A stretch of 48,541 nucleotides of DNA from Methanobacteriota archaeon (lineage in GTDB: Archaea; Hydrothermarchaeota; Hydrothermarchaeia; Hydrothermarchaeales; BMS3B), in assembly GCA_013152685.1 (NCBI GenBank), contig JAADFX010000130.1, forward strand, positions 13,913 to 62,453, read 5' to 3'. How positions within the stretch are numbered: the stretch's first letter is position 1; each line of letters begins with the position of its first letter. This document shows positions 5,642 through 25,076 of the stretch, one piece after another. Position numbers and translations under genes: made by a program. Below the pieces are notes generated by a model, which was given only the letters and a program-made list of their open reading frames with translations, searched no databases and was not told where the DNA came from.

Positions 5642-6535
5642 TCAGCCCAGGAGCTCCCTGCCCTTCTGCACGAAGAAGCTGACGAACTCCTCCCTCTCGG
5701 GATGCGCCGAGTCCCTGCGGCACACCACGTAGAGGTGCCTCTCAACCCTGAAGTCGGCAATCTCCCTCACCAGAATTTTTGAGTTCATGCTCCGCGCCGC
5801 CACCTCGGAGGTAATTGCCGCTCCCAGGCCTCGAGCCACCGCCTGGAGCTGGGAGAAGACGCTGTTCACCTCGGCGATGCTCCTTATCTCCTCCGGAGCT
5901 ATGCCGCGCCGCTTTAGCGCGTGGTGCAGGTAGCGCGTTATGCCAGAGCTCTCCGGAAGGGTCACCAGGGGGTGGCGCAGCACCTCCCGAATCGTGAGCT
6001 CGGGCACCTCCGCGAGGGGGTGCCCCCGGCTAAGCGCAAGCACCAGGCGGTCCCTTCCCAGGGGGGTGCACCCGTAGCCAGCGCCGAGCTCGCCCTCCAG
6101 GAAGCACGCCACGGCGATGTCCACCTCGCTGCTCTCCAGCAGCGCGGCGCACTCGGAGGAGTTCTTTATCAGCACCGCGAGCTCAAGCTCGGGCCTGAGG
6201 AGGCGGTACTCGCGCAGCACCTCAGGCAGGAGCACCACTCCAGGGATGTTTCCCAGCGCAATGCGAAGCGGCGGTGTTCTCCGCGCCGCCACCTCCCTCC
6301 TGGCCGCCTCCAGCCTCCTGAGGATGCCCCCAACCTCCTGCACCGCTATCCTGCCCTTCTCGGTGAGCTCCACTCCGGTTTTCTTCCTCTCCAGGAGCTT
6401 CTCCCCGAAGAACTCCTCCACAGCCCTAACGTGGGCGCTGACGGTGCTCACAGAGAGGCCCAGCGCCCTTGCGGCGTAGAGCAGGCTCCCGTGCTCCACC
6501 ACCTTCTGAAAGGTGTGCAGGTACTCCAGCCTCAT
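5642..6535 (-). CDS. LysR-family transcriptional regulator
   Basis: N-terminal wHTH LEYLHTFQKVVEHGSLLYAARALGLSVSTVSAHVRAVEEFFGEKLLER followed by a periplasmic-binding-protein-like effector domain. It is divergent from the multihaem cytochrome gene. Confidence 0.85.
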   Translation of the reverse strand: MRLEYLHTFQKVVEHGSLLYAARALGLSVSTVSAHVRAVEEFFGEKLLERKKTGVELTEKGRIAVQEVGGILRRLEAARREVAARRTPPLRIALGNIPGVVLLPEVLREYRLLRPELELAVLIKNSSECAALLESSEVDIAVACFLEGELGAGYGCTPLGRDRLVLALSRGHPLAEVPELTIREVLRHPLVTLPESSGITRYLHHALKRRGIAPEEIRSIAEVNSVFSQLQAVARGLGAAITSEVAARSMNSKILVREIADFRVERHLYVVCRRDSAHPEREEFVSFFVQKGRELLG

Positions 6536-6566
6536 GGGCGTATATTCCCCCCGGCAGTATTTATAT

Positions 6567-6585
6567 TTTTCGGATTTTCAGAAAA
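6567..6585. promoter_or_regulatory. Dyad TTTTC-N9-GAAAA (T-N11-A-like) in the LysR/cytochrome divergent intergenic region
   Basis: TTTTCGGATTTTCAGAAAA, read directly. It lies between the LysR start (6535) and the cytochrome start (6661). The TATA-like ATTTATATA and the GGAGGTGG ribosome-binding site follow downstream. Confidence 0.25.
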
Positions 6586-6660
6586 ATTGGGCGTTTAATT
6601 CGTATTTTACAAAAGATTTATATACCTCCCGGCGGCAATTTCTCTTCGGAGGTGGTAAAC

Positions 6661-8541
6661 ATGAGGGCTGCAATAGGTGGGGCTGTGCTCCTGCTTGTGC
6701 TCCTCTTCCCGGTGTATGCAGACTCCTGCGTGGACTGCCACGGCAGCAGGGAGAAGATGGAGCAGCTGGGCTACCCGCAGTTCTACTTCCCCCTGGAGGA
6801 GGTGAGGGAGCAGACGGGCATGCCCGCCACCTGCGTGGACTGCCACCTGGGCAATCCCGAGGCAACTGACCTGGAGGAAGCCCACAGGGGCGTGCTCTCG
6901 GTGCAGGTGGTGAGCAAGAAGGCCTTCTCCCTGCTGGACAGGGAGAACCTGATGTCAGCGCTCACGCCCAACGGGAGCAGGCTCACCAGCATGTTGCCAA
7001 AGGACAGGAGGGTGAACACCCTCATATACCACGACCGCGAGCCAGAGCTTTTCACCTTCAACAGGAGCGCTGTGGAGAGGACCTGCGGAAAGTGCCACCC
7101 GCGCCAGGTGGAGGAGTTCGCCCGCACGGTGATGGGCTCTGTGAGGTACCAGAGCATGTACAGGAACTGGACCGACACCCAGCTCGGACCGCACAACTGC
7201 GGCCCCTGGTACCTGGACCACTGGGAGGAAATCGCCAGTGAGAGCAGCGCCAACTACACCTACGAGCAGGCGAGGATAAACCAGAAGGCGTGCAACAGGT
7301 GCCACGTCTCCTGCCTGGACTGCCACTACGCCCCCTTCGAGGGCGAGGGGGTGCACAGGTTTGAGCGCACGCCGTCGCCGGTGAGCTGCTACGGCGGTGG
7401 CAGGGGCTCAATATGCCACGCGGGACCAGAGGAGCGCCGCAGAGGTGCGGGCTACCTGGGTGCGGAGTTCTCGAAGCCTCCTGGAAGGGAGCCGGATGTG
7501 CACGTGAAGTACAACCTCACCTGCGTGGACTGCCATGACCCCCTCGCCAAGGGGGGCATGGGCGGCGTTGAGAGAGAAGCGAGCTGCACCACCTGCCACG
7601 GAGAGATTGCGGAGGCCGTGAGCTCGAGCGACCACGCCAGCGTCGCCTGCGAGTCCTGCCACATAAAGGATGTGGGCGGCTACCAGCTGACGGTGTGGGG
7701 TCCGGGAAAGGTCGCCGGTGTTGCAACGCCCTACAAGAAGTACAGGAACTACTACGGCGAGGCGCCCAATCCGATACTCATCAGAGATGCCTCCGGGAAG
7801 TGGATACCGGTGAAGCCCTTCCCCATGGTCACCGTGGGCGTGGCGAAGGAGGTGAAGGGCAAGCCCGGCCCGAGCTTCAGGAGGAACGGCTCCAGGGACG
7901 CCTTCGCGCTGGTGGGGACCTTCGACGGCCTGCCCGAGAACAACCTGGCTCTGCTCTGGTTCCAGATGGACAAGATGTCCCACGCCATAAGGAAAGAGGC
8001 CAGGGACTGCGAGAGCTGCCACGCCTCGACGGAGCAGGGATTCTACGCGAAGTGGAAGTTCACAGACCAGGGGGCGGAGCCCTTCGAGGGCGAGCACCGC
8101 ATCGTTGCCAACAGCTCTGGGCTATACGCCCTGGGGCTGAGGAACACCACGCCCATAGTCACAAAGAAGGGGTGGAGCATCGCAGACCTGGCGCCCTGGT
8201 ACTACCTGAGGGACAAGTTCTACGCCAGGGGCGACTACTCCCTGCCGGAGGTGGAGGAGGCGAAGTACGCCGCCGCCAGGGCTGAGGCGGAGAGCTTCCT
8301 GGAGGAGTACGCAGCGCTGGAGCAGAGGCTCTCCAGAGCAGGAGATGCGGAGAAGCTGGAAGAGCTGGAGAAGGTCAGGGCGATAGGTGTGCACAACCCG
8401 CAGGAGGGCATCCGCCTGCTGAAGGAGCTGGGAGCGGAGCCCGCTCCCAAGCCTGAGGAGCGCGGAGTGTGCGGCCCCACGGCGGTGGCGCTGCTCGCGG
8501 CGCTCACCCTGGCGCTGGGGCGGTGCCTCAGGAGGGCGTAG
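6661..8541 (+). CDS. Exported multihaem c-type cytochrome (9 CxxCH plus one possible CX8CH) with CGP-CTERM-like anchor
   Basis: GGAGGTGG lies 6 nt upstream of ATG 6661. Signal peptide MRAAIGGAVLLLVLLFPVYA. Haem sites are CVDCH x3, CGKCH, CNRCH, CLDCH, CTTCH and CESCH x2. Many N-x-S/T sequons are present. A coiled-coil segment precedes GVCGPTAVALLAALTLALGRCLRRA. The part of the track ORF upstream of 6661 overlaps lysR. Confidence 0.85.
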   Translation: MRAAIGGAVLLLVLLFPVYADSCVDCHGSREKMEQLGYPQFYFPLEEVREQTGMPATCVDCHLGNPEATDLEEAHRGVLSVQVVSKKAFSLLDRENLMSALTPNGSRLTSMLPKDRRVNTLIYHDREPELFTFNRSAVERTCGKCHPRQVEEFARTVMGSVRYQSMYRNWTDTQLGPHNCGPWYLDHWEEIASESSANYTYEQARINQKACNRCHVSCLDCHYAPFEGEGVHRFERTPSPVSCYGGGRGSICHAGPEERRRGAGYLGAEFSKPPGREPDVHVKYNLTCVDCHDPLAKGGMGGVEREASCTTCHGEIAEAVSSSDHASVACESCHIKDVGGYQLTVWGPGKVAGVATPYKKYRNYYGEAPNPILIRDASGKWIPVKPFPMVTVGVAKEVKGKPGPSFRRNGSRDAFALVGTFDGLPENNLALLWFQMDKMSHAIRKEARDCESCHASTEQGFYAKWKFTDQGAEPFEGEHRIVANSSGLYALGLRNTTPIVTKKGWSIADLAPWYYLRDKFYARGDYSLPEVEEAKYAAARAEAESFLEEYAALEQRLSRAGDAEKLEELEKVRAIGVHNPQEGIRLLKELGAEPAPKPEERGVCGPTAVALLAALTLALGRCLRRA

Positions 8542-8556
8542 CCCTCCCTTTATTTT

Positions 8557-9546
8557 TTAATCCAGCTCATCCAGCACGTAGTCCTCCCACTTCCGCTCCC
8601 CCAGCACAATCTCAAGCTCCTGGGGGGTGAGCATGGGCCTGGGAAAGCGCGGCGCATCCTCAATTGTCACGCGGGGGCAGGAGGTGTTCACCAGCGCATC
8701 CAGGTGGCGGAAGTAAATCAGGTTCTCTGGCGTGACCTCGGCGAGGTGAATCAGGTGGGCCTCCTTTTTCATCTCCCGGAGCTTCTGCTTTATCCGCCTC
8801 GCGAGCGCAAGGCGCCTCTGGCCGGGCTTCTCCCCCACGATTATGCCGAAGCGCTGCGCATCCCTCGCCTTCGCCATGGTGGCGAAGCGCTGCCTCAGGA
8901 AGCGCTCCCTCTTCTCCTCCATGTTCCTCACCTCCCCCTGAAGCAGGTCGAAGGCGTACACCGGCTTTCCCGTGGCAAGCGCAACGCCTAGGGGATGGAA
9001 GTCCCCGCTTCCCAGGTAGGCGAAGCAGTCCACCCTGCTGGAGATGCTCTTTGCGCAGGCGAAGGAGCAGCCCAGCACCTGCCCGGGGTAGCGCGCCCTT
9101 CCCCTCGCCCCGCCTATGTGCACCTCGAAGCCCCTCGCCTCGAGAAACCTCCTCGCCCTCTCGAGGATGTGCACGTGCTGCACTGTCGTAATTAAACCCA
9201 CCCTCTTCTCCAGCAGGTGGAGGTGCTCCTCCAGCAGGGGCTCCGCCTCCTGGGGGAGGCGCACCTCGATGTAGTGCACGGGTATGCGGGTGCTCTTTAA
9301 AAGCTGCGCGTGCCCGAAGTGGAACACCGCCTCTGCGCCGAGCTGTGCCGCCGGTTCGTCGGCGAGGTCGCAGGCGCCGTAGCAGGGGTTCGCCGAGATG
9401 AGCACCTCCGCTCCGGTGAGCTCCTCCACTTGGGAGGCCACCTCCGTGGCGTGGTCCCTAAGCCCCTCGGGAAACTGCAGGCTCACCCTGGAGTAGCCCT
9501 CCCTTTTTATAATCTCAGCGATGCGCTCAACCTCAAAGTTGTACAT
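8557..9546 (-). CDS. dph2: Diphthamide biosynthesis enzyme Dph2 (2-(3-amino-3-carboxypropyl)histidine synthase)
   Basis: The typical archaeal Dph2 N-terminus (YNFEVERIAEIIKREGYSRVSLQFPEGL) and conserved Cys residues (PCYGACD, SCP). Confidence 0.88.
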   Translation of the reverse strand: MYNFEVERIAEIIKREGYSRVSLQFPEGLRDHATEVASQVEELTGAEVLISANPCYGACDLADEPAAQLGAEAVFHFGHAQLLKSTRIPVHYIEVRLPQEAEPLLEEHLHLLEKRVGLITTVQHVHILERARRFLEARGFEVHIGGARGRARYPGQVLGCSFACAKSISSRVDCFAYLGSGDFHPLGVALATGKPVYAFDLLQGEVRNMEEKRERFLRQRFATMAKARDAQRFGIIVGEKPGQRRLALARRIKQKLREMKKEAHLIHLAEVTPENLIYFRHLDALVNTSCPRVTIEDAPRFPRPMLTPQELEIVLGERKWEDYVLDELD

Positions 9547-10094: not shown

Positions 10095-10574
10095 CTACTT
10101 CTTTATCCAGTCCGCAATAAACACCTTGTAGGTCCTGCCGAGCCTCTCCCGGGTTATTATCCCCTTCTTCTCCAGATTGAGCAGCAGGGCGCTCACCTTC
10201 GACTTTGAGAAGCCTGTGCGGAAGCGCAGCGAGTCCTGGGTGATGCCCTCATTCTCCCTTATTATCTCTATGAGAAGCGCCTCATCCTCACTCAGGGCGC
10301 GCTCAAGTATGGCGTAGCTCTTGCTGTCCTGCTTCTTCTCCTCCTCGGGCTTTGCCCACATGTAGAATAGGGCGCCAGCGGCTATGCCGGCAATAAAGGA
10401 CAGGGTGAGGCGGTACCTGAGCAGGGAAAGGCTCTCCTCGGTGAGCAGCAGCGAGGCCAGGGAATCCAGGCCAAAGTACACGATGAACACCAGCAGAAAG
10501 GTCGCCAGAACGCGCTCATTCTCCGTGGCCGGCTTTTTTATCTTCATGGTGGTATCCTTATTGGCGCCGGTCAT
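10095..10574 (-). CDS. Membrane-anchored winged-helix (MarR/TrmB-like) DNA-binding protein
   Basis: Two N-terminal TM helices followed by EALLIEIIRENEGITQDSLRFRTGFSKSKVSALLLNLEKKGIITRERLGRTYKV, a wHTH. Confidence 0.6.
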   Translation of the reverse strand: MTGANKDTTMKIKKPATENERVLATFLLVFIVYFGLDSLASLLLTEESLSLLRYRLTLSFIAGIAAGALFYMWAKPEEEKKQDSKSYAILERALSEDEALLIEIIRENEGITQDSLRFRTGFSKSKVSALLLNLEKKGIITRERLGRTYKVFIADWIKK

Positions 10575-10583
10575 ATAAGAAGC

Positions 10584-11774
10584 CTATGGCAGCACTCCGG
10601 CACGCCTAATTATCCCCAGCATCTCCAGGCTGAAGGCCGAAGCCGAGAGCAGGAGCAGAAGGCCGCCCACCATGGAGACGGCGCTCTGGGACAGGTACAT
10701 CCCCAGGGCGAGCAGCACAACACCCGCATTGTAGGCGTAGAAAATCCAGCGAGAGCGCTCCGCGGAGAAGAGCTCCTTGAAGGAGGAGGGCGCCCTCTCC
10801 CGCTCCCTGGGCAGGATCCGCGCCCAAGCAAGCGTCGGGATCACGTGGTACAGCCCCCCGATTACCGTCTGGCCGACAAAGCCCAGGGCGGCCAGGTGGG
10901 CGTGGACTGAGGAGAGCCCCGCCTCAGGAAAGGCTGCCTGTACCAGGCCCAGGAGGAGAACCAGCAGCAGGTAGCCCAGGGCAGCCAGAAAGAACCTGGA
11001 CTCCACGGGCTCTGGCTTGAAGCTCATCCTGGTGGGCGCCGTGTAGCTCTTTACCATGTCGTAGGTGAAGAGGGCGGCTGCTGAGAGGAGGACCGCGCCG
11101 GAGAGGAGGAGAAGCGCCTCAGAGAGCCCGAAGCCGAGCACCATCCCCGCCGCCGAGATGAGGGTGAGGTAGAACACGTAGTCCACCCAGCGCCGGTTGT
11201 ATATGTCCTTGACCACCAGCATGGGGAGCATCCAGGACATGGCGCCGAAGATTATCAGGGTCACCCCGCCCACCAGGGAGAGGTGCACATGGGAAGGGCG
11301 GTAGCCGTAGAGGGCGGGGTTCAGGAGGATCAAAAACCCAAGCGTCGCCCCGAGGCTAAGAAGGACGCTGGCTGCCGAGTAGAACTTGAAGGCATAGTTT
11401 TCCCCCCTGCGCTCCGCGATGGTCGCCAGGATGTTGTAGGTGAAGAGGTAGAAGCACACCAGCAGGAGCAGTGCCCCAGCCGCCGCCACCAGGCGGTGGT
11501 GGGGGTAGCTCAGCGAAAACACCACCAGGCCGGAGTTGAAAAGCCAGAAACTCGCCGAGGCGGCGCGCTTGCTGTGGAGCTCAGCGCCGGTGAGGGTGGG
11601 AACCTGCTGGTACATGGTGGCAATTATAACGCCGCAGACGAACCCCACCAGGGCGAGGTGCACGTGCACAGGCGTGGGAACCGAGAGGCCGGCCAATCCG
11701 GCTAACCCGAGGAGGAGCGCCACAACAAAATACACCAGCGCCGCTGCCAGAAACCGCAGTATTACGGCCGACAT
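10584..11774 (-). CDS. Polytopic (about 12 TM) membrane protein with thrice-repeated H-x-H-L...P-x-L motif; function unknown, possibly haem/metal-binding
   Basis: The 396-aa ORF carries repeats PVHVHLALVGFVCGVIIATMYQQVPTL, PSHVHLSLVGGVTLIIFGAMSWMLPML and SVHAHLAALGFVGQTVIGGLYHVIPTL about 125-135 aa apart. It is co-oriented 200 nt downstream of the HAO-like gene. The CDS is confident; the function is not. Confidence 0.6.
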   Translation of the reverse strand: MSAVILRFLAAALVYFVVALLLGLAGLAGLSVPTPVHVHLALVGFVCGVIIATMYQQVPTLTGAELHSKRAASASFWLFNSGLVVFSLSYPHHRLVAAAGALLLLVCFYLFTYNILATIAERRGENYAFKFYSAASVLLSLGATLGFLILLNPALYGYRPSHVHLSLVGGVTLIIFGAMSWMLPMLVVKDIYNRRWVDYVFYLTLISAAGMVLGFGLSEALLLLSGAVLLSAAALFTYDMVKSYTAPTRMSFKPEPVESRFFLAALGYLLLVLLLGLVQAAFPEAGLSSVHAHLAALGFVGQTVIGGLYHVIPTLAWARILPRERERAPSSFKELFSAERSRWIFYAYNAGVVLLALGMYLSQSAVSMVGGLLLLLSASAFSLEMLGIIRRAGVLP

Positions 11775-11778: not shown

Positions 11779-11916
11779 CTAACCGTGAATCAGCATCGGC
11801 AGGCAGCGGGTGCAGATGTAGTGCTTATCCTGCCGGTGGTAGTACTTTATGAGGGGAACCTCATCCTCACTCCGCTGGCAGTTTTCACACTTCTTCATGC
11901 TTATGAAGATAGCCAT
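11779..11916 (-). CDS. Small zinc-ribbon protein (45 aa; 39 aa from the second ATG), not in the ORF track
   Basis: Reverse translation gives MAIFISMKKCENCQRSEDEVPLIKYYHRQDKHYICTRCLPMLIHG* (CxxC-x24-CxxC). The stop lies 4 nt before the start of the downstream membrane-protein gene. Confidence 0.4.
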   Translation of the reverse strand: MAIFISMKKCENCQRSEDEVPLIKYYHRQDKHYICTRCLPMLIHG

Positions 11917-11969: not shown

Positions 11970-13460
11970 TCAGGGCTTCCTCCTTCTCCTGAGCAGCAGC
12001 GCATACCCTGCCACCGGCAGCAGCGCAAGGGCAGCCACTGACGTGGGACCGCACACGCCCTTCTGCTTCTCCAGCTTGGCAACGCGCTCCTCGAGCTCCT
12101 TCTTCTCCCGCTCCATCTCGAGCCACTCTTCCATCATGTTGAGCTTGTCCATCAGCGCATCCACTGCACCGTTCCAGTGGGTCCAGTCGGGCCCCATCAT
12201 GCTGGCGCCCATCCTCCACCTTCTGCCGTCGTGGTGCCAGATGTAGTAGTACATGATCTCCGGAATCTCGTCTATCGGGTTGGACTTGTCTATGAGTCCC
12301 TCCTCGTAGGCGGCGTTGAGGAGCTGCTCCGTGTACTCGTACACCCTGTTGTAGTCCTCCACCACCTTGTCGAAGCTCTCGAAGTAGCCGTCAACCCAGT
12401 CGCTGGCGTGGCACACCCTGCACACCTTCTTCATCTCTGCCCTGCCCCGCTTTGCCTGCTCCAAATCGGGCTTCTGCTCTCCCAGGGGCACCTTGCTGGC
12501 GTCGTCCCACTGGGGCGTCGACTTCTTGGGCTGAAGCTCCCAGTAGAGCCTGGCTCCAACGTCGTGGGTGCTCTCAACCACTCCGCCAAAGCCGGACATG
12601 TGGCAGGTGGCGCAGGTGGGTGCCGCTATGTCCTCGGGACCCCACTGACCAGGGGGCACGTCCCAGTTCCAGTCTTCGCCGCTGCTCGCGTAGATGTTGC
12701 CGTGCTTGCTCTCCTCGTAGATCTCTATCTGCGGATGGTCAGGGCCGAGATGGCACTGGCCGCAGGTCTCGGGCTTCCTCGCTTCGGCTATGCTGAACCT
12801 GTGGCGAGTGTGGCAGGCGGAGCAGGTTCCCATGCTGCCGTCGGGGTTGATCCTGCCTATGCCATTGTTGGGCCAGCCGTCCACCAGATTGCCGTTCTTT
12901 GATATCACGTAGCTTCCGTGGCACTCCAGGCAGCCCAGCACCTGGTTCTCCTGGTGGTAGTTCTCGTCATCCAGGAGGCCGATGCGCTTCAGGGCACCGC
13001 TGTCCGGGAACAGCGGCGTGAGCTGCCCCCTTATGAAGTCCCTGGGGTTGTTCTCAATGGCGGTCTCCAGCTTCAGCGGGTCCTTGCCCTGCTTCACCAT
13101 CTCCCTGTACCAGGGCTTCAGCGGCCCTATGAAGGCTGCCCAGGCGTGCTTGCTCCTTGAAAACTCCGCAACCTGCTTTGGATGACAGCTCTCGCAGTAG
13201 CGCGGTGATACCACTGCCGTGACCCTGTAGCCCATGTGCTCAAAGCCGGAGGGGTCGTCATCCTTGGCGAGGTGGCAAACATAACACTTCACTCCCACCT
13301 TGCTGTGCTTACTCTCCTCCCACTGCTTCACTATCCCTGGGGTTACGGTGTCGTGACAGCTCAGACAGGGCGCCCCTGGCTCTCTGAATTCCTGTGCGTT
13401 AGCTGTACTGAGCAACATCGCTGCAGCTATCGCAAAAATTAAGAGATGCTTTAACCTCAT
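11970..13460 (-). CDS. hao: HAO-family (hydroxylamine oxidoreductase-like) octahaem c-type cytochrome with CGP-CTERM-like anchor
   Basis: Signal peptide MRLKHLLIFAIAAAMLLSTANA. Eight CxxCH sites are present: CLSCH, CYVCH, CESCH, CLECH, CSACH, CGQCH, CATCH and CRVCH. HAO/HDH-like blocks include VKQWEESKHSKVGVKCYVCH and YIWHHDGRRWRMGASMMGPDWTHWNG. The C-terminus has a coiled coil followed by KGVCGPTSVAALALLPVAGYALLLRRRRKP. Confidence 0.85.
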   Translation of the reverse strand: MRLKHLLIFAIAAAMLLSTANAQEFREPGAPCLSCHDTVTPGIVKQWEESKHSKVGVKCYVCHLAKDDDPSGFEHMGYRVTAVVSPRYCESCHPKQVAEFSRSKHAWAAFIGPLKPWYREMVKQGKDPLKLETAIENNPRDFIRGQLTPLFPDSGALKRIGLLDDENYHQENQVLGCLECHGSYVISKNGNLVDGWPNNGIGRINPDGSMGTCSACHTRHRFSIAEARKPETCGQCHLGPDHPQIEIYEESKHGNIYASSGEDWNWDVPPGQWGPEDIAAPTCATCHMSGFGGVVESTHDVGARLYWELQPKKSTPQWDDASKVPLGEQKPDLEQAKRGRAEMKKVCRVCHASDWVDGYFESFDKVVEDYNRVYEYTEQLLNAAYEEGLIDKSNPIDEIPEIMYYYIWHHDGRRWRMGASMMGPDWTHWNGAVDALMDKLNMMEEWLEMEREKKELEERVAKLEKQKGVCGPTSVAALALLPVAGYALLLRRRRKP

Positions 13461-13503
13461 ATTCTCACCCAGTTAACAATCTCCCACTCATATATTAAAA
13501 AGG

Positions 13504-13544
13504 TTTTTTTAAAAAGTGATTTAAATAAAGATTGTAGTGTTAAA
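13504..13544 (-). promoter_or_regulatory. hao upstream composite element TTTAACACTA-N19-TTTTTAAAAAAA (gene orientation)
   Basis: Read directly. The plus strand is TTTTTTTAAAAA-GTGATTTAAATAAAGATTG-TAGTGTTAAA. N19 contains the TATA-like TATTTAAAT. The proximal end lies 43 nt from the hao ATG. The same outer blocks occur with the same spacing upstream of napA. Confidence 0.55.
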
Positions 13545-13551
13545 ATTTAGT

Positions 13552-14652
13552 TTAGGTTGATAGGCGCACCCTGTGCCTCAATTCGGGAAGCGGTGACGAG
13601 GCGGCGTACACCGTACCGGCGCAACCCTCGAGCTCCTCCTCCCTTTTAGCCGTGAGCACGCGGGGCTTTAATTCCTCATCCCTGCATGTGAGGACAACTT
13701 CATCCACAACCCCTGAATTTAAAGAAAATTTAAGCAGCGCCGTAACTGCACCGCCGTCCTGCCCTCCGCCACGGGTTGCCCTGGCAGCCAGGATGCGCCT
13801 GTACCTGCCCAGGTGCTCCCTCCGTAGCTCCCCCAGCTCCAGCTGCTCCTCCAGCGCCCTCAGAGGCAGCGCTGTTCTGGTGCAGGCAGCGTAGCACAGG
13901 CTGCAGTCCTGGGGGCACCTCCCCCTCAGCCTGGGCATGCCGTTCCTCATCTCCAGCTCCGAACATGCGGCGCTGCACGCACCGCACGCGTCGCACAGAC
14001 CGGAGACCACGATATCCCTCCACAGCTCCCGGAAGCCCCTGCCCTCGGTCCTGCTCAGCGCCTCCTCCAGCGAGCCCAGATCTCTGGTGGCGTGGTGGGG
14101 CACCTCATCCCCCTGCTCCACCCTGCTCTGTATCCTCCTGAGGCTCCTCTCAAACTTGGCGCGGGCGACCCGCTGGAGCTCCTCCACGCCCGCCTCGCCC
14201 ACCTCCATCAGCTCCAGAAGGCCCGCCTCCTCAGCACCATGCAGCACCTCCTCGCCCCGGGGGGTGCGCACAATCAGGGTGGTCCACCCCTCCGGGGAGC
14301 CGGTGCTACCTGCGCTAATGTCCGCCAGCTCTGAGGTGAAATCCAGGCACATCCTGCACGCCATCTTCACGTACTTCCTCATCTCCCCCAGGGGAAACTC
14401 CAGCTCCATGCCCCGGGCTGAAACCCTCACCCGGTCCCCGGAAATTCTCATCCGGGCCACCTCCTCTGGCGCCACGCCCCGCGCCTCCAGGAACCCTGCC
14501 ATGCAGGGGTAGCTCCAGTTGCCCATGCAGAAGAGGCCCACCACCAGCTCCACCCGCTCCACCAGCCTCCTCCCCAGCAGCCTGCCCAGCGCCTGCAGCT
14601 TTCGCAGCCCCTGCACCTGACACGGCGTCCCCACGAAGCCCAGCGCTCTCAC
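13552..14652 (-). CDS. FrhB/FdhB-family (F420-reducing hydrogenase beta-like) flavo-FeS protein, circularly permuted, with internal 2x[4Fe-4S] segment
   Basis: The N-terminus starts in the FrhB C-domain (GTPCQVQGLRKL, LFCMGNW, CRMCLDFTSELADISAGSTGSPEGWTTLIVRT). Next come CDACGACSAAC and CPQDCSLCYAAC. The FrhB N-domain (GGGQDGGAVTALL...AGTVYAASSP) comes last. The ATGA overlap with napD indicates translational coupling. Confidence 0.75.
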   Translation of the reverse strand: MRALGFVGTPCQVQGLRKLQALGRLLGRRLVERVELVVGLFCMGNWSYPCMAGFLEARGVAPEEVARMRISGDRVRVSARGMELEFPLGEMRKYVKMACRMCLDFTSELADISAGSTGSPEGWTTLIVRTPRGEEVLHGAEEAGLLELMEVGEAGVEELQRVARAKFERSLRRIQSRVEQGDEVPHHATRDLGSLEEALSRTEGRGFRELWRDIVVSGLCDACGACSAACSELEMRNGMPRLRGRCPQDCSLCYAACTRTALPLRALEEQLELGELRREHLGRYRRILAARATRGGGQDGGAVTALLKFSLNSGVVDEVVLTCRDEELKPRVLTAKREEELEGCAGTVYAASSPLPELRHRVRLST

Positions 14653-14891
14653 TCCACCTCATCCTCCACGTTCAGGTACACCAGCTGGAAGTCCACCACG
14701 TCCTCCCACTTCTCTATCTCCTCCGAGAGCTTCTTGAGCTCCTTTGTGCTTCTCCCCTCCATCACCACTGCAATTCCCCGGGTGCCCCTCCCCTTAACCT
14801 CGACTCCCGGGAGGTTCCTGAGGTTCCTCTCCACCTCGTCCTCCCTCCCGGGCACCGGCACAATTACCGCTCCAGATATGGGCAAATCCAT
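14649..14891 (-). CDS. napD: NapD-like Tat-proofreading chaperone
   Basis: 80 aa from the ATG at 14891, which overlaps the napH TGA within GGAGGTGATGG. The sequence ISGAVIVPVPGREDEVERNLRNLPGVEVKG...GIAVVMEGRSTKELKKLSEEIEKWEDVVDFQLVY matches the NapD ferredoxin-like pattern. The longer track ORF overlaps napH. Confidence 0.72.
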   Translation of the reverse strand: MDLPISGAVIVPVPGREDEVERNLRNLPGVEVKGRGTRGIAVVMEGRSTKELKKLSEEIEKWEDVVDFQLVYLNVEDEVE

Positions 14892-15736
14892 CACCTCCTT
14901 ACCGCATAGTACAGGGCGCCCGTTGGGCAGGCGTCCCTGCACAGTCCACAATTATCACAGGTTCTATCATTAAAATCCTTATCTATACCGAGCTCCACAG
15001 GGCGCAGACCATAGGGGCAGGCGATGTTGCACTCACCGCAGAAGATGCAGCGCTCCATCCTCTTGGAGATTCTCACCACCCTCTTCGCCCCCAGCAGCGA
15101 CAGGAAGCCTCCCGCCGGGCACAGGGAGCGGCACCAGATCCGCCTGGCGGCGAGCGCCTCGAGCAGGACCACGCCCGTCAGGAGGAGAAGGCCGCCGTAG
15201 CTCGGGGCGCCGTAGGTGAGGACATAGAAGATCTCCCTTCCCAGCACGTGGGGCAGGTCGAAGGCGGACACCACCGGAGTGGCAAAAAAGAAGCTCAGGA
15301 GCAGCGCAAACCCCAGCAGGTGGTAGCGGTAGTCCGCCACCCTGAGGCTGAGCCTCACGCCGCGCGAGCTGAGGAAGCTCCCAAGCCTCTGGTTGAGCTC
15401 CAGCAGGAACCCGGCGGGGCAGATCCAGGAGCAGAAGACCCTGCCCAGGAGGAGGGTAATCGCCAGGGGCAGAAGCGCCGCCGCCAGCAGCGGCAGGTAA
15501 ACCACCTTCGCCGCCAGCATCGCCTCCAGCGCCGCGAGGGGGTGGGTAACGGTGAAGCCGTAGAAGCTGAAGCTCCAGGTGTCGCCCCACACGCGGGACA
15601 CCCTGGGCGGCGGGAGCTCCCCCATGGCTATCCGGGATGGTGCCCACTCTATCGGATTCTGGGAGTACAGGGGGACGGCGACCAGCACCGCCAGGACCAG
15701 CACCTGAAACACGCGCCTCAACCTGCGGACTTCCAT
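14891..15736 (-). CDS. napH: NapH-type membrane FeS quinol dehydrogenase subunit
   Basis: The start MEVRRLRRVFQ lies at 15736, just after the napG stop. Four TM helices are present. CxxxCP motifs are CSWICPAG and CRSLCPAGG. C-terminal ferredoxin motifs are CIFCGECNIACP and CDNCGLCRDACP. Confidence 0.85.
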   Translation of the reverse strand: MEVRRLRRVFQVLVLAVLVAVPLYSQNPIEWAPSRIAMGELPPPRVSRVWGDTWSFSFYGFTVTHPLAALEAMLAAKVVYLPLLAAALLPLAITLLLGRVFCSWICPAGFLLELNQRLGSFLSSRGVRLSLRVADYRYHLLGFALLLSFFFATPVVSAFDLPHVLGREIFYVLTYGAPSYGGLLLLTGVVLLEALAARRIWCRSLCPAGGFLSLLGAKRVVRISKRMERCIFCGECNIACPYGLRPVELGIDKDFNDRTCDNCGLCRDACPTGALYYAVRR

Positions 15737-15737
15737 G

Positions 15738-16478
15738 CTAGACCCTCTTAACCACCCGCACCGCGGGAAGCTCAACACCCGGCCCCGCCCTGCCTATCAC
15801 ATTCCTCACCATGGCGGCGTACCTCTCCTCGAAGTAGGTGAGCTTCCTCCCCGGCTCCATCGTCGCCCTGGCAATCCTCTCATTCACCGGGCAGACGTAG
15901 TTGCACATCCCGCATCCGACGCAGTGCCTCTCATTCACGTGGGGCCTTATTCCCACGGCACCCTCTATCACCTCATTCGGCGGGTAGGCGAGCATGGCGT
16001 CATCCCTGAGGGGGCAGTTGTAGTAGCACTCCCCGCAGGAGTCGTACTGCCACGCCAGGCACAGGTCGCGGTTTAGCACAGAAACGCCCATCTTCAGCTC
16101 CTCTGGAAGTGCCAGGAGGGTGTCCCTGTCGTTCCTTATCTTCCTGAGGGCGCCCGTGGGGCACGCCTCGCCGCACAGCAGATACTCGCTCAGGGGCTCG
16201 TCCCTGCCCTCACTGGTTCGCCTGAGGCAGAGGTAGCAGGGGGTCTCCACGGGGTCAATGTAGGGCGTCGCCACCTTCGCGCCCGCGCTGATATCGAAGA
16301 ACTTTATGGAGTCGTAGGGGCACGCCTCACCGCACTTTCCACACCTGATGCAGCGGGCCAGAAAATCACGCGCCGCCCCCGGGGGGCGTATTGCCGGGGC
16401 GTCGCCTTCTCCGAGCCCTATGCCAGCCAGGCCGATGAGCACCACACCCTTGAGGAAGCTCCTGCGCTTAAGCTTCAC
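15738..16478 (-). CDS. napG: NapG-type Tat-exported poly-ferredoxin
   Basis: Tat signal KRRSFLKGVVLIGLAG. The sequence contains IRPPGA...F...CIRCGKCGEACP plus three further 4Fe-4S motifs (CGEACPTGA, CGECYYNCP, CVGCGMCNYVCP). It overlaps the upstream gene by 4 nt. Confidence 0.85.
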   Translation of the reverse strand: MKLKRRSFLKGVVLIGLAGIGLGEGDAPAIRPPGAARDFLARCIRCGKCGEACPYDSIKFFDISAGAKVATPYIDPVETPCYLCLRRTSEGRDEPLSEYLLCGEACPTGALRKIRNDRDTLLALPEELKMGVSVLNRDLCLAWQYDSCGECYYNCPLRDDAMLAYPPNEVIEGAVGIRPHVNERHCVGCGMCNYVCPVNERIARATMEPGRKLTYFEERYAAMVRNVIGRAGPGVELPAVRVVKRV

Positions 16479-16906
16479 CAGCCACCCTCCCTCTCAATCT
16501 CAATAATCGCAACCTCGTAGTGGCGCCCCTTTATCTGGTAGGGCACCACCACCCTGCCCCGCACCACCACCTCGGAGCCCTGCATCGGCATTGTTCCCCG
16601 GGTGATGACCCATATCTCACCCGTGCCGTCGTTCAGCAGATAGGGCTGCTCATCCACAAACTCAAAGGCAAGCCCCGGGAGTGCGGTGCCCCGCAGCACC
16701 ACCTCCATGCCCTCGTAGGCCTCCGGGTTGTCCAGAATATCGGCGACCCTGACACCGCCGCCCGCATCACCCGCCGGCGCCGGCTCTGGTTGTGGCGTCG
16801 CTACGGGCGCCTCCACCGCCTCCCCCACAGCCTCAACCACCGCTTCCTCCTTCTCAACGCAGCCGGCAAGAACCAGAAGTATCAGCAGCACTGCATAGAG
16901 CCGCAT
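16475..16906 (-). CDS. Predicted lipoprotein with A/P/E-rich linker and OB-fold-like C-terminal domain (unknown function) in the napB position
   Basis: Lipobox LLVLAGC, a low-complexity linker and then a beta-rich domain (MEVVLRGTA...GEIWVITRG...VVVRGRVVVPYQIKGRHYEVAIIEIE). There is no CxxCH, so it is not NapB. The stop overlaps the napG start. Confidence 0.55.
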   Translation of the reverse strand: MRLYAVLLILLVLAGCVEKEEAVVEAVGEAVEAPVATPQPEPAPAGDAGGGVRVADILDNPEAYEGMEVVLRGTALPGLAFEFVDEQPYLLNDGTGEIWVITRGTMPMQGSEVVVRGRVVVPYQIKGRHYEVAIIEIEREGGW

Positions 16907-17015: not shown

Positions 17016-19493
17016 CTACGCCTTGACCACCTTTATCTTGCACACCTTGTAGTCAGGCTCCGCCGCCTTTGACCAGCTCTCGGGCACGTCTATGGTGAGG
17101 TCGTTGATCAGCTTGGTCTCATCGAACCAGGGCACGAAGACCATGCCCGGCTGAGCGCGCTCTGTAACCCAGGCGGGGAGGACGATGCTGCCGCGCGGTG
17201 ATATCAGCTTTATCTTCTCACCGCTCTTGACCCCCAGCTTCCTGGCATCGCTCGGGTGTATCTCCACGTAGGCGGCCGGGTTCAGCTCACGCAGCAGGCG
17301 CACGCGCATGGTCATTGTTCCGGTGTGCCAGTGCTCTATAACCCTGCCGGTGTTCAGCACGAAGGGATAGCTGGCGTCCGGCATCTCGTAGTCCAGCTTC
17401 GCCGCGAGAGCGCGGATTACCGCCTTGTCCTTGGTGTTCTTGAGCTTGTGGCCTCCGTAGTAGTTTATCGGCCCTGGATAGCCGTGCTCCTCCATGTGCT
17501 GGTCGTACAGCGTGACGTAGCCCGTGGCGTACCTCTTCTTGTCCCTTCCGAACACCCTTATCGCGTACTCCCTGGAGATGTAGCGCTTGTTGCTTCCGCG
17601 GTTGTCAAACTCGGTGCTCGGGCAGGGCCACTGGACGCCGCCCGCGTGGGCCTTGAGCTTCTCGTAGGTGGCGCCGTAGAGGTCAACATCCTGTCCCCTG
17701 GTGAGCACCCTGTACTCGTTCCACGCGGCCTCCTCTGGCGTCATCTCGCCCTTCTTAACCCTGGGGTCGTCGTAGAAGCCCAGGCCGTAGACCTCTATGG
17801 TGTCCAGCACCTTGAGCGGGTCCTGCCTGTCCCTGATGGCATACTTAACCTTCCTTCCCAGCTTCTGGGCTATCCTCCTGGCCACCTCATTTATCTGCCA
17901 GAAGTCGGGCTTTGCCTCTCCCGGCGGGTCCACCAGCTTGTTTATAAACTGGCTCCTCCTGTCTGTCTGCCCCATGACGCCCTCCTTCTCCACCCACATG
18001 GCGCTGGGCAGTATGACCGTCGCCACCTCAGTGGTCTTGTTGGGGTAGATGTCGCTCACCACAGTGAAGGCCTTCATCATGGCCTCCGCATAGCGGTCGC
18101 AGTTGGGCAGGCTCTGCGCCGGGTTGGTGGTGTTTATCCATATCGCCTTTATCTCGCCCTTCTCCAGGCGCATGAACATGTTAACCGCCGGGCCCGTGGG
18201 CTTCTTGGGCATCTGCTCAACGGGCACGCCCCAGACCTCTGCCACCTCCTGCCTGTGCTTGGGATTCGCCACCGCCCTGTGCCCCGGCAGGATGTGGGTG
18301 AGTCCGCCCTGCTCGCGAGTGCCGCCGCAGGCGTTGGGCTGCCCCGTGAGGCTGAGGGAGTCACAGCCGGGCTTGCCTATCTTGCCTGTGAGCAGGTGCA
18401 GGTTGTGAACCTGGCAGTTGAGCTCCACGCCCTGGGTGCGCTGGTTCAAACCCATGGTCCACATGCTGAGGGCAGTGTAGCCGCGCCGCCCAAACCACCG
18501 CGCCGCCAGGCGTATGTCCTCAGCGGGCACCCCGGTTATGTCCTCCACCTTCTCCGGGGTGTAGTCCTTGAGGAACTCCCTGAAGCCGTCCAGGTCCATC
18601 TCCTCGCCGGCCGGACCAAGGCCCACCCTGAAGGTGCAGTACTTGAGGTGCTCGTAGTCCACCATGTCCTCCTCTATTATCACATACGCCATGGCGTTCA
18701 GCAGGTACATGTCGGTACCCGGCTTGAACTTCAGGTGGAGGTCCGCATACCTCGCTGTCGGAGTTGTGCGCGGGTCGGCCACTATAACCCTCACCCTGTC
18801 CGGATAGGCGCTCTTCCTGTCTATCACCCTGCGGAAGAGCATCGGGTGCTGCTCCGCCATGTTTGAGCCTATGATGAAGATGGTGTCCGCCAGGTCTATG
18901 TCGTCGTAGCTTCCCGCAGGCTCATCTGCGCCGAAGGTGTTGAGGTAGCCTCCAACCGCAGAAGCCATGCACAGCCTGGGGTTGCCCTCCACGTTGGCGG
19001 TGCCAATAAGCCCCTTGAAGAGCTTGTTGGCGGCGTAGGCTTCCTGGGTTGTGTTCTGTCCAGAGCCGTACCACGCGACGCTGTCGGGACCGTACTCCTT
19101 GATGTACTTGGCAAAGGTGTCGGCAATCAGCTCCAGCGCCTCGTCCCAGCTGACCTCCTTGTAGCTTCCATCCGGCTGACGCACCATGGGCTTGGTCAGC
19201 CTCTCCTTCCCGCCGCCACCGTACATTATGTGGGGCAGCGAGTACCCCTTCATGCAGAGTCTGCCGAAGTTTATCGGGGAATCCGCATCGCCCTTTACTG
19301 CCACCACCTTACCGTCACGCACGCCCACAAGTACAGTGCAGCCGGTGCCGCAGAACCTGCACTGGGCGCGCCCGAAGGTTATTCCCCCATCTCCCGGCGC
19401 CGCCATCGCGGGGGCACTCATGCCGGCTGCAAGCATCGCTGCAGTGGCGGCTGAAGCCTTTATGAACTCACGTCTGCTCATGCTTATTCCCAT
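17016..19493 (-). CDS. napA: Periplasmic-type nitrate reductase catalytic subunit NapA (Mo-bisPGD, Tat-exported)
   Basis: GGAGGTGA lies 5 nt before ATG 19493. Tat signal SRREFIKASAATAAMLAAGMSAPAMA. The N-terminal [4Fe-4S] motif is CRFCGTGCTVLV...C. The Mo-ligand region NPRLCMASAVGGYLNTFG resembles NapA. The napG/H/D context supports the call. Confidence 0.9.
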   Translation of the reverse strand: MGISMSRREFIKASAATAAMLAAGMSAPAMAAPGDGGITFGRAQCRFCGTGCTVLVGVRDGKVVAVKGDADSPINFGRLCMKGYSLPHIMYGGGGKERLTKPMVRQPDGSYKEVSWDEALELIADTFAKYIKEYGPDSVAWYGSGQNTTQEAYAANKLFKGLIGTANVEGNPRLCMASAVGGYLNTFGADEPAGSYDDIDLADTIFIIGSNMAEQHPMLFRRVIDRKSAYPDRVRVIVADPRTTPTARYADLHLKFKPGTDMYLLNAMAYVIIEEDMVDYEHLKYCTFRVGLGPAGEEMDLDGFREFLKDYTPEKVEDITGVPAEDIRLAARWFGRRGYTALSMWTMGLNQRTQGVELNCQVHNLHLLTGKIGKPGCDSLSLTGQPNACGGTREQGGLTHILPGHRAVANPKHRQEVAEVWGVPVEQMPKKPTGPAVNMFMRLEKGEIKAIWINTTNPAQSLPNCDRYAEAMMKAFTVVSDIYPNKTTEVATVILPSAMWVEKEGVMGQTDRRSQFINKLVDPPGEAKPDFWQINEVARRIAQKLGRKVKYAIRDRQDPLKVLDTIEVYGLGFYDDPRVKKGEMTPEEAAWNEYRVLTRGQDVDLYGATYEKLKAHAGGVQWPCPSTEFDNRGSNKRYISREYAIRVFGRDKKRYATGYVTLYDQHMEEHGYPGPINYYGGHKLKNTKDKAVIRALAAKLDYEMPDASYPFVLNTGRVIEHWHTGTMTMRVRLLRELNPAAYVEIHPSDARKLGVKSGEKIKLISPRGSIVLPAWVTERAQPGMVFVPWFDETKLINDLTIDVPESWSKAAEPDYKVCKIKVVKA

Positions 19494-19546
19494 ACTTTCA
19501 CCTCCGCCTCTGTATAATATTCATGGATTTTTAGGTTAATAAAACC

Positions 19547-19587
19547 TTTTTTTAAAAATTTTATTTATATCCCTCCATAGTGTTAAA
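19547..19587 (-). promoter_or_regulatory. napA upstream composite element TTTAACACTA-N19-TTTTTAAAAAAA (gene orientation)
   Basis: The plus strand is TTTTTTTAAAAA-TTTTATTTATATCCCTCCA-TAGTGTTAAA. N19 holds the TATA-like ATATAAATA. The proximal end lies 53 nt from the napA ATG. The outer blocks and the spacing are identical to the hao element. Confidence 0.55.
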
Positions 19588-19658: not shown

Positions 19659-20318
19659 TTAAATGTTACCTTCCAGCGACAGCATGGTCATGAAGGCGCG
19701 CTTCCCCGTGTCGGAGATGTAGTAGTGGCGGTTTTCATCCTGGGCTATCAGCCCCGCCTGCTTTAGCACCCTCAGGTGAAAGCCGAGCTTTGCGGGCTCA
19801 TCGATGTCCAGGTAGTTCATTATGTCGGTAAAGCGCGCCTTCCCCTTTGCGTGGAGGTACTCTATTATCCTGCGGCGTATCGGGTTTGAGAGGGACTTGA
19901 GCACGTCCTTCCCGGTCTCCCTGACGCCCGCCTTCTCCCGCACCGCCTCCTCTATCCTGGTCTCCTCCAGCAGGCGGAGGATCTTGTTCCTGATCTCCTC
20001 CACCTTGAAGGGCTTGAGGATGTAGTCGCTGGCTCCCATCTTCATCGCCCTCACGGCGCTGTCCACTGTGCCAAAGGCGGTGATAATTATGACCTTTGTG
20101 AGAGGGGAGTACTTCTTGACGTTCCTCAGCACCTCCATCCCGTCGGCTCCCGGCATCACCAGGTCGGTGATGACCAGGTCAAACTTCTGCTTTTTTATCA
20201 TGTTTATGGCCTTGACCCCGTCCTCTGCGATTTTGGGGGAGTAGCCCTTCTTCTCCAGCAGAATCTTCAATCCCTCTCTGAGCTTCGGGTCATCCTCCAC
20301 TATCAGTATCTCCTGCAT
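19659..20318 (-). CDS. Response regulator: REC domain plus ArsR-type winged-helix output
   Basis: The start [13 protein letters not shown] lies at 20318. The phospho-acceptor context is DLVITDLVMPGADG. The C-terminal LSNPIRRRIIEYLHAKGKARFTDIM...KLGFHLRVLKQAGLI is an ArsR/SmtB-like wHTH. Confidence 0.82.
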   Translation of the reverse strand: MQEILIVEDDPKLREGLKILLEKKGYSPKIAEDGVKAINMIKKQKFDLVITDLVMPGADGMEVLRNVKKYSPLTKVIIITAFGTVDSAVRAMKMGASDYILKPFKVEEIRNKILRLLEETRIEEAVREKAGVRETGKDVLKSLSNPIRRRIIEYLHAKGKARFTDIMNYLDIDEPAKLGFHLRVLKQAGLIAQDENRHYYISDTGKRAFMTMLSLEGNI

Positions 20319-25065: not shown

Positions 25066-25076
25066 GGTGGTAAAGG

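Follow-up and report, generated by a model that had tools for sequence, protein, structure and literature searches.

Introduction

Archaeal cytochromes of the HAO family are already known (PMC4429474), as are the structure of one archaeal member, IhOCC, reductive HAOs that lack the cross-link tyrosine, and nap-hao gene clusters in thermophilic bacteria. IhOCC, the Igni_0955-type octahaem cytochrome c of Ignicoccus hospitalis (4QO5), is referred to as an octahaem nitrite reductase without P460 (PMC9250108). The epsilon-Haos reduce nitrite and hydroxylamine and show negligible hydroxylamine oxidation (PMC8042395), and their product from nitrite in vitro is ammonium (PMC9213671); the Kuenenia enzyme HAOr (KsHAOr), also devoid of the tyrosine, forms nitric oxide (NO) only (PMC8042395). 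Nitrate is ammonified without NrfA in Thermosulfurimonas dismutans and Dissulfuribacter thermophilus, where a HaoA homologue lies next to nap (PMC5276818). Beyond the clade of nitrifiers and anammox bacteria, most proteins of the HAO family have been assigned no physiological role (PMC9213671). Here we set against these systems the gene hao (11970-13460, minus strand) in a stretch of archaeal DNA of 48,541 nucleotides (positions 13,913 to 62,453 of contig JAADFX010000130.1, assembly GCA_013152685.1), which as a whole we call the window. Our analysis indicates that the product of hao, the HAO protein, is an octahaem cytochrome of the HAO family encoded next to a nap operon and most likely a reductive, non-P460 member of it. 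We consider it rather probable that it reduces nitrite in a process coupled to NapA, most likely to ammonium.

Hydrothermarchaeota are abundant in hot subseafloor crust, and the published reconstructions, which give NapADGH, report no nitrite reductase and leave the hao gene unmentioned (PMC6775978, PMC6759336), stop at nitrite. As judged from gene content and nearest genomes, the host of the window is a Candidatus Hydrothermarchaeota (Pyrohabitans-like) archaeon. A Dph2 gene (8557-9546) marks the host as archaeal, the nearest genomes are those of Candidatus Hydrothermarchaeota isolate S141_67 and Candidatus Pyrohabitans sp. JdFR-17 (HAO identity 89%), and one neighbouring protein is 100% identical to a protein from a metagenome-assembled genome (MAG) labelled 'Euryarchaeota archaeon'. 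The archaeal host named in an earlier note made from the letters alone (below, the original prediction) is thereby confirmed.

Results

The hao open reading frame (ORF) starts with ATG, has a Shine-Dalgarno-like GGGTGAG motif upstream and encodes 496 residues. Eight CxxCH motifs begin at residues 32, 59, 89, 177, 213, 233, 283 and 347; shuffled versions of the protein contain a mean of 0.02 (maximum 2), and in the whole window only three ORFs bear CxxCH, hao included. A motif scan of the 496 residues found no CxxCK and no CxxxCH, and Cys470, near the C-terminus, is the sole non-haem cysteine. None of the eight motifs varies among 70 homologues, all of them match IhOCC motifs in the alignment, and two further blocks are invariant or nearly so in the same set, one at haem 2 (W47..S50.H52...G56V57.C59..C62H63) and one after haem 8 (W408.H410DGRR...G418..M421.G423PD..H428W429.G431). 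Pfam PF13447, the HAO family, is matched at 108.2 bits against a cut-off of 21.9. The HAO protein thus belongs to the HAO family and to the octahaem HAO fold class; the original prediction had claimed the family, the eight canonical sites in HAO-type order and the two family-like blocks, both of which are exact in the translation. The N-terminus reads as a Sec-type signal peptide (residues 1-22, MRLKHLLIFAIAAAMLLSTANA, then QEF; 13395-13460) with a putative cleavage site at its end, and in the structural model described next this region forms a helix (residues 2-20), after which comes a linker of low confidence.

Among characterised proteins the archaeal IhOCC stands nearest, whether sequence, predicted fold or tree is considered. 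In searches of the PDB it is the best match (E 1e-56 with the single sequence, 2e-75 with a profile), followed by KsHAOr (6H5L; 2e-26 and 8e-40), the HAO of Nitrosomonas europaea (NeHAO; about 1e-21 and 4e-30), anammox HOX (8e-18 and 1e-29) and anammox HDH (6e-15 and 1e-22). An AlphaFold2 (AF2) model computed from the 70 homologues, which is a haem-less monomer, reaches a mean predicted local distance difference test score (pLDDT) of 88.5 and a predicted template-modelling score (pTM) of 0.82. Its best Foldseek match is again 4qo5 (E 9e-21, TM 0.67), then 6h5l, 1fgj, 6hif and 4n4j, and the top 11 matches are all of the HAO fold (4qo5, 6h5l, 1fgj, 4n4n, 4fas, 6hif, 6t5e, 4n4j, 4n4m). Similarity to octahaem nitrite reductase (ONR) is not significant by sequence (E 0.17 single, 0.38 profile) or by fold (E 1.7, TM 0.30), nor is the fold match to OcwA, and no structure of octahaem tetrathionate reductase (OTR) or MccA was returned by the sequence and fold searches of the PDB. 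Best homology to OTR or MccA-type families, which the original prediction had named as the outcome that would overturn it, therefore did not hold. We also rejected an identity as ONR, OTR, MccA or NrfA, given the non-significant E-values and the lack of CxxCK.

For alignment and tree the chain sequences of NeHAO, the Kuenenia HOX (KsHOX) and IhOCC were taken from the PDB, their known fragments being X-padded as phmmer queries, and KsHAOr was compared over residues 208-396 only, a span outside which its tyrosine site lies. The tree itself is a neighbour-joining tree over 235 columns with partial reference sequences and weak inner nodes, and we use it for coarse statements only. In it all relatives lacking the tyrosine form a clade sister to IhOCC (87% support), apart from NeHAO, KsHOX and KsHAOr. 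Within this clade the HAO protein groups with other Hydrothermarchaeota (100% support), adjoined by a second archaeal MAG and by a bacterial group of proteins of about 460 residues whose labels include Nitrospinota, Desulfuromonadales, Acidobacteriota, Poribacteria and Phycisphaerales; crenarchaeal proteins (Pyrodictium, Desulfurococcales) and nap-linked proteins of Nitrospirota and Thermodesulfobacteriota branch deeper. The family at large is wide: the relatives of the HAO protein fill more than 7500 clusters, and GTDB species genomes contain at least 594 matching stretches that encode one.

The fourth haem motif, C177-L-E-C180-H181 (12918-12932), is predicted, from its homology with IhOCC and HAO, to bind the catalytic, five-coordinate haem. 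In a MAFFT alignment the distal pair Asp241-His242 (12735-12740) corresponds to Asp267-His268 of NeHAO, and it is invariant in the 70 homologues. What differs from the oxidative enzymes is the site of the cross-link tyrosine, which here reads W426-T427-H428-W429 (12174-12185): Tyr467 of NeHAO (...HVNPGGWTY467TEGWGP) and the tyrosine of KsHOX (...MYNQTYGNG) both align to His428 (...MMGPDWTH428W429NGAV), the corresponding stretch of IhOCC being ...MNGQDWTTFKRG. There is no tyrosine between residues 407 and 485 of the HAO protein, the nearest ones standing at 404-406 and 486. According to these alignments the HAO protein is without the P460 cross-link tyrosine, a lack that the original prediction had suspected. 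Met421 and Trp429, eight apart (Met-x7-Trp), are invariant in the 70 homologues and in all tyrosine-less loci examined, and a methionine eight positions before a tryptophan is given as an epsilon-Hao characteristic by Haase et al., as quoted in PMC8940962. An alignment of the Haase type would set Trp429, not His428, opposite the tyrosine; in either case no tyrosine is there. The protein thus carries the residues expected of the epsilon-Hao type, its placement in the epsilon-Hao clade resting on these signature residues only. None of the roughly 8000 relatives from a search seeded with a Desulfurobacterium homologue is named as a campylobacterotal protein (Campylobacterota). The original prediction had taken epsilon-Hao as the reference relative; the shared signature residues agree with this, but the closest characterised relative is IhOCC instead.

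Could the protein nevertheless work oxidatively, as the hydroxylamine or hydrazine dehydrogenases of nitrifiers or anammox bacteria do? Its overall fold is that of HAO, its Asp-His pair is conserved, and some sources annotate its homologues as 'hydroxylamine dehydrogenase'. However, the NCBIfam HDH equivalog NF052343 scores 76.7 bits where 900 are required, the archaeal host is an anaerobe, and the window is devoid of amo and hzs genes. A conserved tyrosine together with an oxidative-clade placement had been named beforehand as the second finding that would count against a reductive enzyme, and neither was seen, the protein standing outside the HAO/HOX/HDH group in the tree. We regard the oxidative reading as effectively refuted and have rejected it.

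We turn from the protein to its gene, whose location next to the nap operon is as the original prediction had it. The hao start lies 91 nt after the end of the last nap operon gene (which ends at 13552), again as predicted, and the gap (13461-13551) is AT-rich. The napA gene (17016-19493, minus strand) encodes the catalytic subunit of a periplasmic-type nitrate reductase with a Tat signal; NapA models fit it best, at 673 bits, below the equivalog cut-off of 904. Neither NapB nor NapC is encoded in the nap cluster of the window. From napA to a winged-helix gene beyond hao, the gene order is identical in Pyrohabitans JdFR-17 (L009 among the loci fetched for comparison) and in the JGI contig L088. 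Elsewhere hao stands directly before napA (L006), or forms nap-hao clusters in bacteria (Nitrospirota, L012; Thermodesulfobacteriota, L013). Among loci whose HAO is at least 44% identical to ours, 5 of 11 are linked to napA and none of the 11 has a NapC/NrfH-type gene directly upstream, two of the 11 being cut at a contig edge so that nap linkage there cannot be judged; among loci with HAO below 44% identity, napA linkage occurs in 1 of 73 and a NapC/NrfH-type gene directly upstream in 38. At least six independent loci, drawn from two domains of life, thus show linkage to napA. We rejected the idea of a family-wide HAO partner, since the COX1-like and FrhB-like genes described below are limited to the closest relatives and NrfH-type genes to distant ones.

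NapA of the window is 93% identical to that of Pyrohabitans JdFR-17 and 73-74% identical to the NapA proteins of an uncultured Nitrospirota bacterium (L012; 74%) and of a Thermodesulfobacteriota bacterium (L013), whose nap clusters likewise end in an HAO-like gene (46% identical). The likeness of both proteins to those of L012 and L013 points to inter-domain transfer of the nap module, perhaps together with hao. An earlier paper has read this NapA as an early-evolved form.

Is reduction then complete? The enzyme might instead be a detoxifying or partial reductase, taking nitrite only to hydroxylamine, in the manner of a reverse hydroxylamine-ubiquinone redox module (reverse-HURM) with a cytoplasmic Hcp finishing the reaction, or it might mainly scavenge hydroxylamine or NO that arise as by-products. 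Such a reverse-HURM has been proposed and supported for Nautilia profundicola, which has a HaoA homologue (PMC8940962, PMC5276818), and epsilon-Haos reduce hydroxylamine efficiently (PMC8042395). But the window holds neither hcp nor a partner gene of the NapC/NrfH/CycB type, and in particular no adjacent gene for a NapC/NrfH-type tetrahaem quinol dehydrogenase; release of toxic hydroxylamine outside the cell would bring no energetic gain, and epsilon-Hao carries nitrite through to ammonium in vitro (PMC9213671). We hold this alternative to be very improbable.

The link between hao and napA extends to their promoters. The AT-rich region before hao (13461-13551, minus strand) contains TTTAACACTA (13535-13544) and TTTTTAAAAAAACCTTTT (13498-13515), and the region before napA (19541-19587, minus strand) contains TTTTTAAAAAAAGGTTTT (19541-19558) and, once more, TTTAACACTA (19578-19587). 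The 18-mer TTTTTAAAAAAASSTTTT stands upstream of both hao (13498-13515) and napA (19541-19558), where zero chance matches are expected. In L009 and L088 its A/T core precedes both napA and hao, at equivalent positions, and in L008 and L006 it precedes hao; nowhere else does it occur in the 89 fetched loci. In the window a weaker copy with one mismatch precedes moeA (23760-23777). Hence hao appears to have a promoter-like region of its own, built like the napA promoter and with the shared TTTTTAAAAAAA element. The original prediction that hao shares the napA upstream element is upheld by the 10-mer and 18-mer matches and by their retention in relatives.

These same observations bear on a different question, namely whether the position beside nap is incidental and the substrate not a nitrogen compound at all. 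The protein could be a terminal reductase of sulfur species (sulfite, polysulfide, thiosulfate or tetrathionate) or a surface conduit for extracellular electron transfer. HAO clades I and II occur in 65 phyla, many without any link to the nitrogen cycle, and for one clade of Desulfobacterota a sulfur role has been suggested (PMC9213671); Hydrothermarchaeota have been predicted to reduce sulfate and to bear multihaem cytochromes at their surface (PMC6775978, PMC6759336), a second cytochrome of the window, with nine haems, shares the C-terminal tail of the HAO protein, and the orthologues in L001 and L005 have no nap nearby. Against this stand the repeated napA linkage in both domains, a promoter element shared specifically with napA, and a distal Asp-His pocket that is that of the HAOs converting N-oxides, and the PDB searches gave no similarity of MccA or OTR type. 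On balance a non-nitrogen substrate seems to us distinctly improbable.

The three long helices of the HAO fold span residues 353-386, 399-420 and 424-466 in the AF2 model, and a further helix follows at 473-493. The third of them (12063-12191) is extended as a predicted coiled-coil stalk of heptad-like sequence, and behind it comes a tail (11973-12059) made of G468-V-C470-G-P-T, an 18-residue hydrophobic stretch and RRRRKP, that is, KGVC470GPTSVAALALLPVAGYALLLRRRRKP, ending KGVCGPTSVAALALLPVAGYALLLRRRRKP. The original prediction had envisaged that a coiled coil and a membrane anchor replace the native C-terminal region. Coiled coil and anchor are indeed predicted by AF2. The replacement is not borne out, as the three HAO-fold helices are kept, the third is lengthened and an anchor is added; NeHAO, too, has a coiled-coil-like stretch and then a hydrophobic Gly/Leu tail (...ISLGGLGGGMLLAG), so the C-terminal region is an extension rather than a replacement. 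Bacterial homologues end inside the third helix, and all archaeal homologues examined (Pyrodictium, Desulfurococcales, Crenarchaeota, ANME-2, Thermoplasmatota) combine a coiled coil, a transmembrane helix and basic residues. A hydrophobic tail occurs in 19 of 104 close homologues, seven of which have G[VI]CGPT, and the GVCGPT-type motif is present in the orthologues L001, L008, L009, L088, P0002, P0004, P0006, P0051, P0077 and P0084.

The second exported cytochrome mentioned above (about 6661-8541, plus strand, within an ORF at 6469-8541) has nine CxxCH motifs and is unrelated to the HAO protein; a PDB search with it gave nothing significant. It too has a coiled-coil-like region followed by the same GVCGPT-hydrophobic-basic tail, ending RGVCGPTAVALLAALTLALGRCLRRA (...EERGVCGPTAVALLAALTLALGRCLRRA). 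The tripartite layout of Cys-Gly-Pro, hydrophobic helix and basic cluster at the extreme C-terminus is therefore common to both cytochromes of the window. Because the tail recurs on a second multihaem cytochrome, it is probably a lineage-specific signal for C-terminal anchoring or sorting, and C-terminal anchors are a known archaeal means of retaining cytochromes c (PMC4429474). The NCBIfam model TIGR04288 (CGP-CTERM) scores 12.5-14.7 bits on three tails, against a cut-off of 21, and is the sole family match for two of them. We rejected a formal assignment to CGP-CTERM or MYXO-CTERM, both being sub-threshold, and call the tail CGP-CTERM-like only. Among the scanned ORFs of the window we recognised no candidate for a cognate tail-processing enzyme.

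All genes around hao lie on the minus strand in the transcription order LVIVD propeller, kinase, regulator, napA, OB-fold gene, napG, napH, napD, frhB-like gene, hao, 39-codon ORF, COX1-like gene and winged-helix gene. Between napA and napG lies a lipoprotein-like OB-fold gene (16475-16906; 143 residues) with a lipobox-like LLVLAGC and a weak YgiW/NirD-like match, which is kept at the same position in L009 (82% identity) and in the Nitrospirota nap cluster L012 (63%). The genes napG (15738-16478), napH (14891-15778) and napD (14649-14951, its true start probably internal) are assigned by profile matches and by synteny with L009, L012 and L088. The frhB-like gene (13552-14652), of the type of the beta-subunit of F420-dependent oxidoreductases, overlaps the napD stop codon and is therefore part of the nap operon, being its last gene. 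Its product is circularly permuted, with FrhB_C at residues 2-151, a ferredoxin-like 2x[4Fe-4S] domain at about 209-263 and FrhB_N at 288-357; only about 13 of its best 150 representatives are colinear with it, the rest matching in the swapped (canonical) order. The FrhB-like protein could provide a link from F420H2 to NapH.

Upstream of napA, a response regulator with a DUF7347/ArsR-type winged-helix output (19659-20375) and a histidine kinase with a Tll0287-like sensor domain and one CxxCH (20290-21753), probably a haem c sensor, form a pair adjoining napA, and the LVIVD propeller protein (21750-22772) lies upstream of the kinase. The same trio stands directly upstream of hao in Candidatus Pyrohabitans jungbluthii JdFR-16 (L001), with no nap nearby, so the two-component system seems to be tied to hao rather than to nap; kinase and regulator are also beside hao in L006 and L088. 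The pair is a candidate regulator of the shared promoter element. Farther on, on the plus strand, are a small TatA-like gene (MLVGNTEILLVIALVVLLFGAGKIPELARSLGRARVEF...; 22894-23034) and a second DUF7347-type response regulator gene followed by moeA and fmdE (23068-25673). In L004 and L006 genes for MoeA, FmdE, MobB and TFX likewise lie beside hao or nap.

Downstream of hao is a 39-codon ORF (MKKCENCQRSEDEVPLIKYYHRQDKHYICTRCLPMLIHG; 11779-11898) with a zinc-ribbon-like CxxC...CxxC pattern; it ends 4 nt before the start codon of the COX1-like gene, and a 39-residue gene is called at the same position in L088. The COX1-like gene (10584-11774; 396 residues) encodes a membrane protein resembling haem-copper oxidase subunit I and NnrS (Pfam COX1, NnrS) and is syntenic in L008, L009 and L088; the winged-helix regulator (10095-10574) follows it. 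The COX1-like protein probably has 12 transmembrane helices. Pfam COX1 matches at 1e-20 in three stretches, NnrS falls just below threshold, and the protein has three HxH-type motifs about 125 residues apart, with conserved histidines at 37/39, 162/164, 293 and 310. Its relatives number only 18 among 5.8 billion clusters, and in one that is 38% identical the gene is not syntenic with hao. We rejected a canonical NO reductase (NOR) or oxidase, since the histidine pattern does not fit and cbb3 CcoN matches at E 1e-3 only. The protein may be what earlier papers scored as 'Nor', and together with the 39-residue ORF product it is a possible NO-handling or electron-entry partner.

This gene gives some substance to the view that the HAO protein is an NO-forming nitrite reductase like Kuenenia HAOr, with the COX1-like protein consuming, detoxifying or sensing the NO, in a branch of the denitrification type. 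KsHAOr, which makes NO only (PMC8042395), is the second-best structural match, the COX1/NnrS-like gene is kept beside hao in three relatives, and Kato et al. found 'Nor' but no NirS/K in Hydrothermarchaeota MAGs. Yet the COX1-like protein is without the canonical histidine pattern of a haem-copper oxidase or NOR, its gene is absent from all other hao loci examined, the HAO protein is nearer to IhOCC, carries the epsilon-Hao signature and does not group with KsHAOr, and we saw no counterpart of Kustc0457, the dihaem partner of KsHAOr. We therefore think NO formation unlikely.

Discussion

Our preferred reading, reduction of nitrite by the HAO protein, follows from several lines taken together: the behaviour of the characterised HAOs that lack the tyrosine, the nitrite step missing from published reconstructions, a linkage to nap that is seen repeatedly, the promoter element in common with napA, and the placement of NapA (by Tat) and of the HAO protein (by Sec) on the outside of the cell. 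How could the enzyme work? After Sec export, eight c-type haems would be attached outside the cell, and the protein would assemble through its three long C-terminal helices, presumably as a trimer like other HAO-fold enzymes. Stalk and GVCGPT-hydrophobic-RRRR tail would keep it at the outer surface of the cytoplasmic membrane; the tail would act either as a transmembrane helix or, once processed, through a modification at Cys470. In the same compartment the Tat-exported NapA would convert nitrate to nitrite, which would then bind at haem 4 (C177xxC180H181) under the distal Asp241-His242 and be reduced without release of intermediates, most likely with six electrons to ammonium. The path of these electrons to haem 4 would lead over the other seven haems, whose ligation is presumed to be bis-His, as in solved HAO-fold structures. 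Since no dedicated NapC/NrfH-type cytochrome is encoded here, the donor is probably NapGH or another carrier on the membrane side. Co-expression with nap would be achieved through the shared promoter element, probably by the adjacent haem-sensor kinase and response regulator.

Several points weigh against this reading. Identity to IhOCC, the nearest of the characterised proteins, is no more than 30%, and IhOCC is itself without a known physiological role, and KsHAOr yields NO rather than ammonium although it has no tyrosine, so the absence of this residue does not fix the product. Coupling to nap is not obligatory, since JdFR-16 (L001) and L005 have close orthologues but no nap genes within 10 kb of them. 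Speth et al. have argued that many proteins of HAO clades I and II may act on sulfur compounds (PMC9213671), and nitrate is scarce in the source habitat according to a published analysis of Hydrothermarchaeota. The electron donor, moreover, is a presumed one, and the five-coordination of haem 4 and its inter-subunit surroundings lie outside a haem-less monomer model.

The type of enzyme is known from other archaea and many bacteria. What is new is local: a candidate nitrite reductase for the Hydrothermarchaeota, a promoter element shared by hao and napA, the GVCGPT tail, and a nap-linked, NrfH-less sub-clade spanning both domains. The hao gene is a concrete candidate for the nitrite step missing from the published reconstructions; if this is true, nitrogen would be kept as ammonium and not lost as gas. 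The repeated adjacency to napA in archaea and bacteria, together with the shared promoter element, is unusually direct genomic evidence for a function in the nitrogen cycle, and the sub-clade is a defined target for expression and assay. That two multihaem cytochromes share the tail suggests that this lineage has its own means of attaching redox enzymes to the archaeal cell surface. One may speculate further that the locus is a self-contained archaeal nitrate-to-ammonium module, in which electrons from cytoplasmic F420H2 would pass through the FrhB-like protein, translationally coupled to napD, into the Fe-S clusters of NapH on the cytoplasmic side and then across the membrane to NapG, which would supply both NapA and the octahaem enzyme, bypassing quinol-dependent cytochromes, and both surface cytochromes would be fixed by a new lineage-specific signal of the GVCGPT type. 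Taken as a whole this picture is doubtful, and we offer it as an unlikely extension.

How does the locus compare with described systems? The oxidative HAO, HOX and HDH (N. europaea 1FGJ, Kuenenia 4N4J and 6HIF) share with the HAO protein the octahaem fold, the distal Asp-His pair and the three C-terminal helices, but they have the cross-link tyrosine that it lacks, their E-values are weaker than that of IhOCC by 25 to 45 orders of magnitude, and Tyr334 of NeHAO is replaced by Gln310. The penta- and octahaem nitrite reductases NrfA and ONR share the proposed function, the formation of ammonium from nitrite at the outer side of the membrane, and belong to the same broad multihaem superfamily; the HAO protein, which has no CxxCK, is a member of neither family. 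KsHAOr (Kustc0458/0457) resembles it in the Asp-His pair, in lacking the tyrosine and in being reductive only, with about 31% identity over 187 residues. In the tree, however, KsHAOr stands with KsHOX and NeHAO, and unlike the HAO protein it is soluble, complexed with a dihaem partner and NO-forming.

The epsilon-Haos, namely the HaoA proteins of Campylobacter fetus, C. curvus and Caminibacter mediatlanticus as well as Nautilia profundicola, are likewise without the tyrosine and have the Met/Trp pair, and their hosts are nitrate respirers that use Nap and have no NrfA. They are soluble periplasmic proteins, whereas the HAO protein carries a C-terminal stalk and anchor. The HaoA homologues of T. 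dismutans and D. thermophilus share a cluster with a Nap that lacks NapB and NapC (PMC5276818), as here, but with an NrfD-type/FeS module (PMC5276818) where the window has the FrhB-like gene. The HAOs of the analogous bacterial clusters L012 and L013, about 46% identical, have no C-terminal anchor.

IhOCC, finally, is a sister lineage and not an orthologue, given 30% identity and a distal Asp-Val in place of the Asp-His that the HAO protein has in common with all other HAOs. It also has Phe at the position of Trp429 and, between haems 7 and 8, an insertion of 76 residues (spacing 123; in the HAO protein 64), and no nap context is known for it. Like the HAO protein, it is nonetheless an archaeal, membrane-associated cytochrome with eight haems in the HAO fold and no tyrosine cross-link, and at the site where the oxidative HAOs have WTY it reads WTT.

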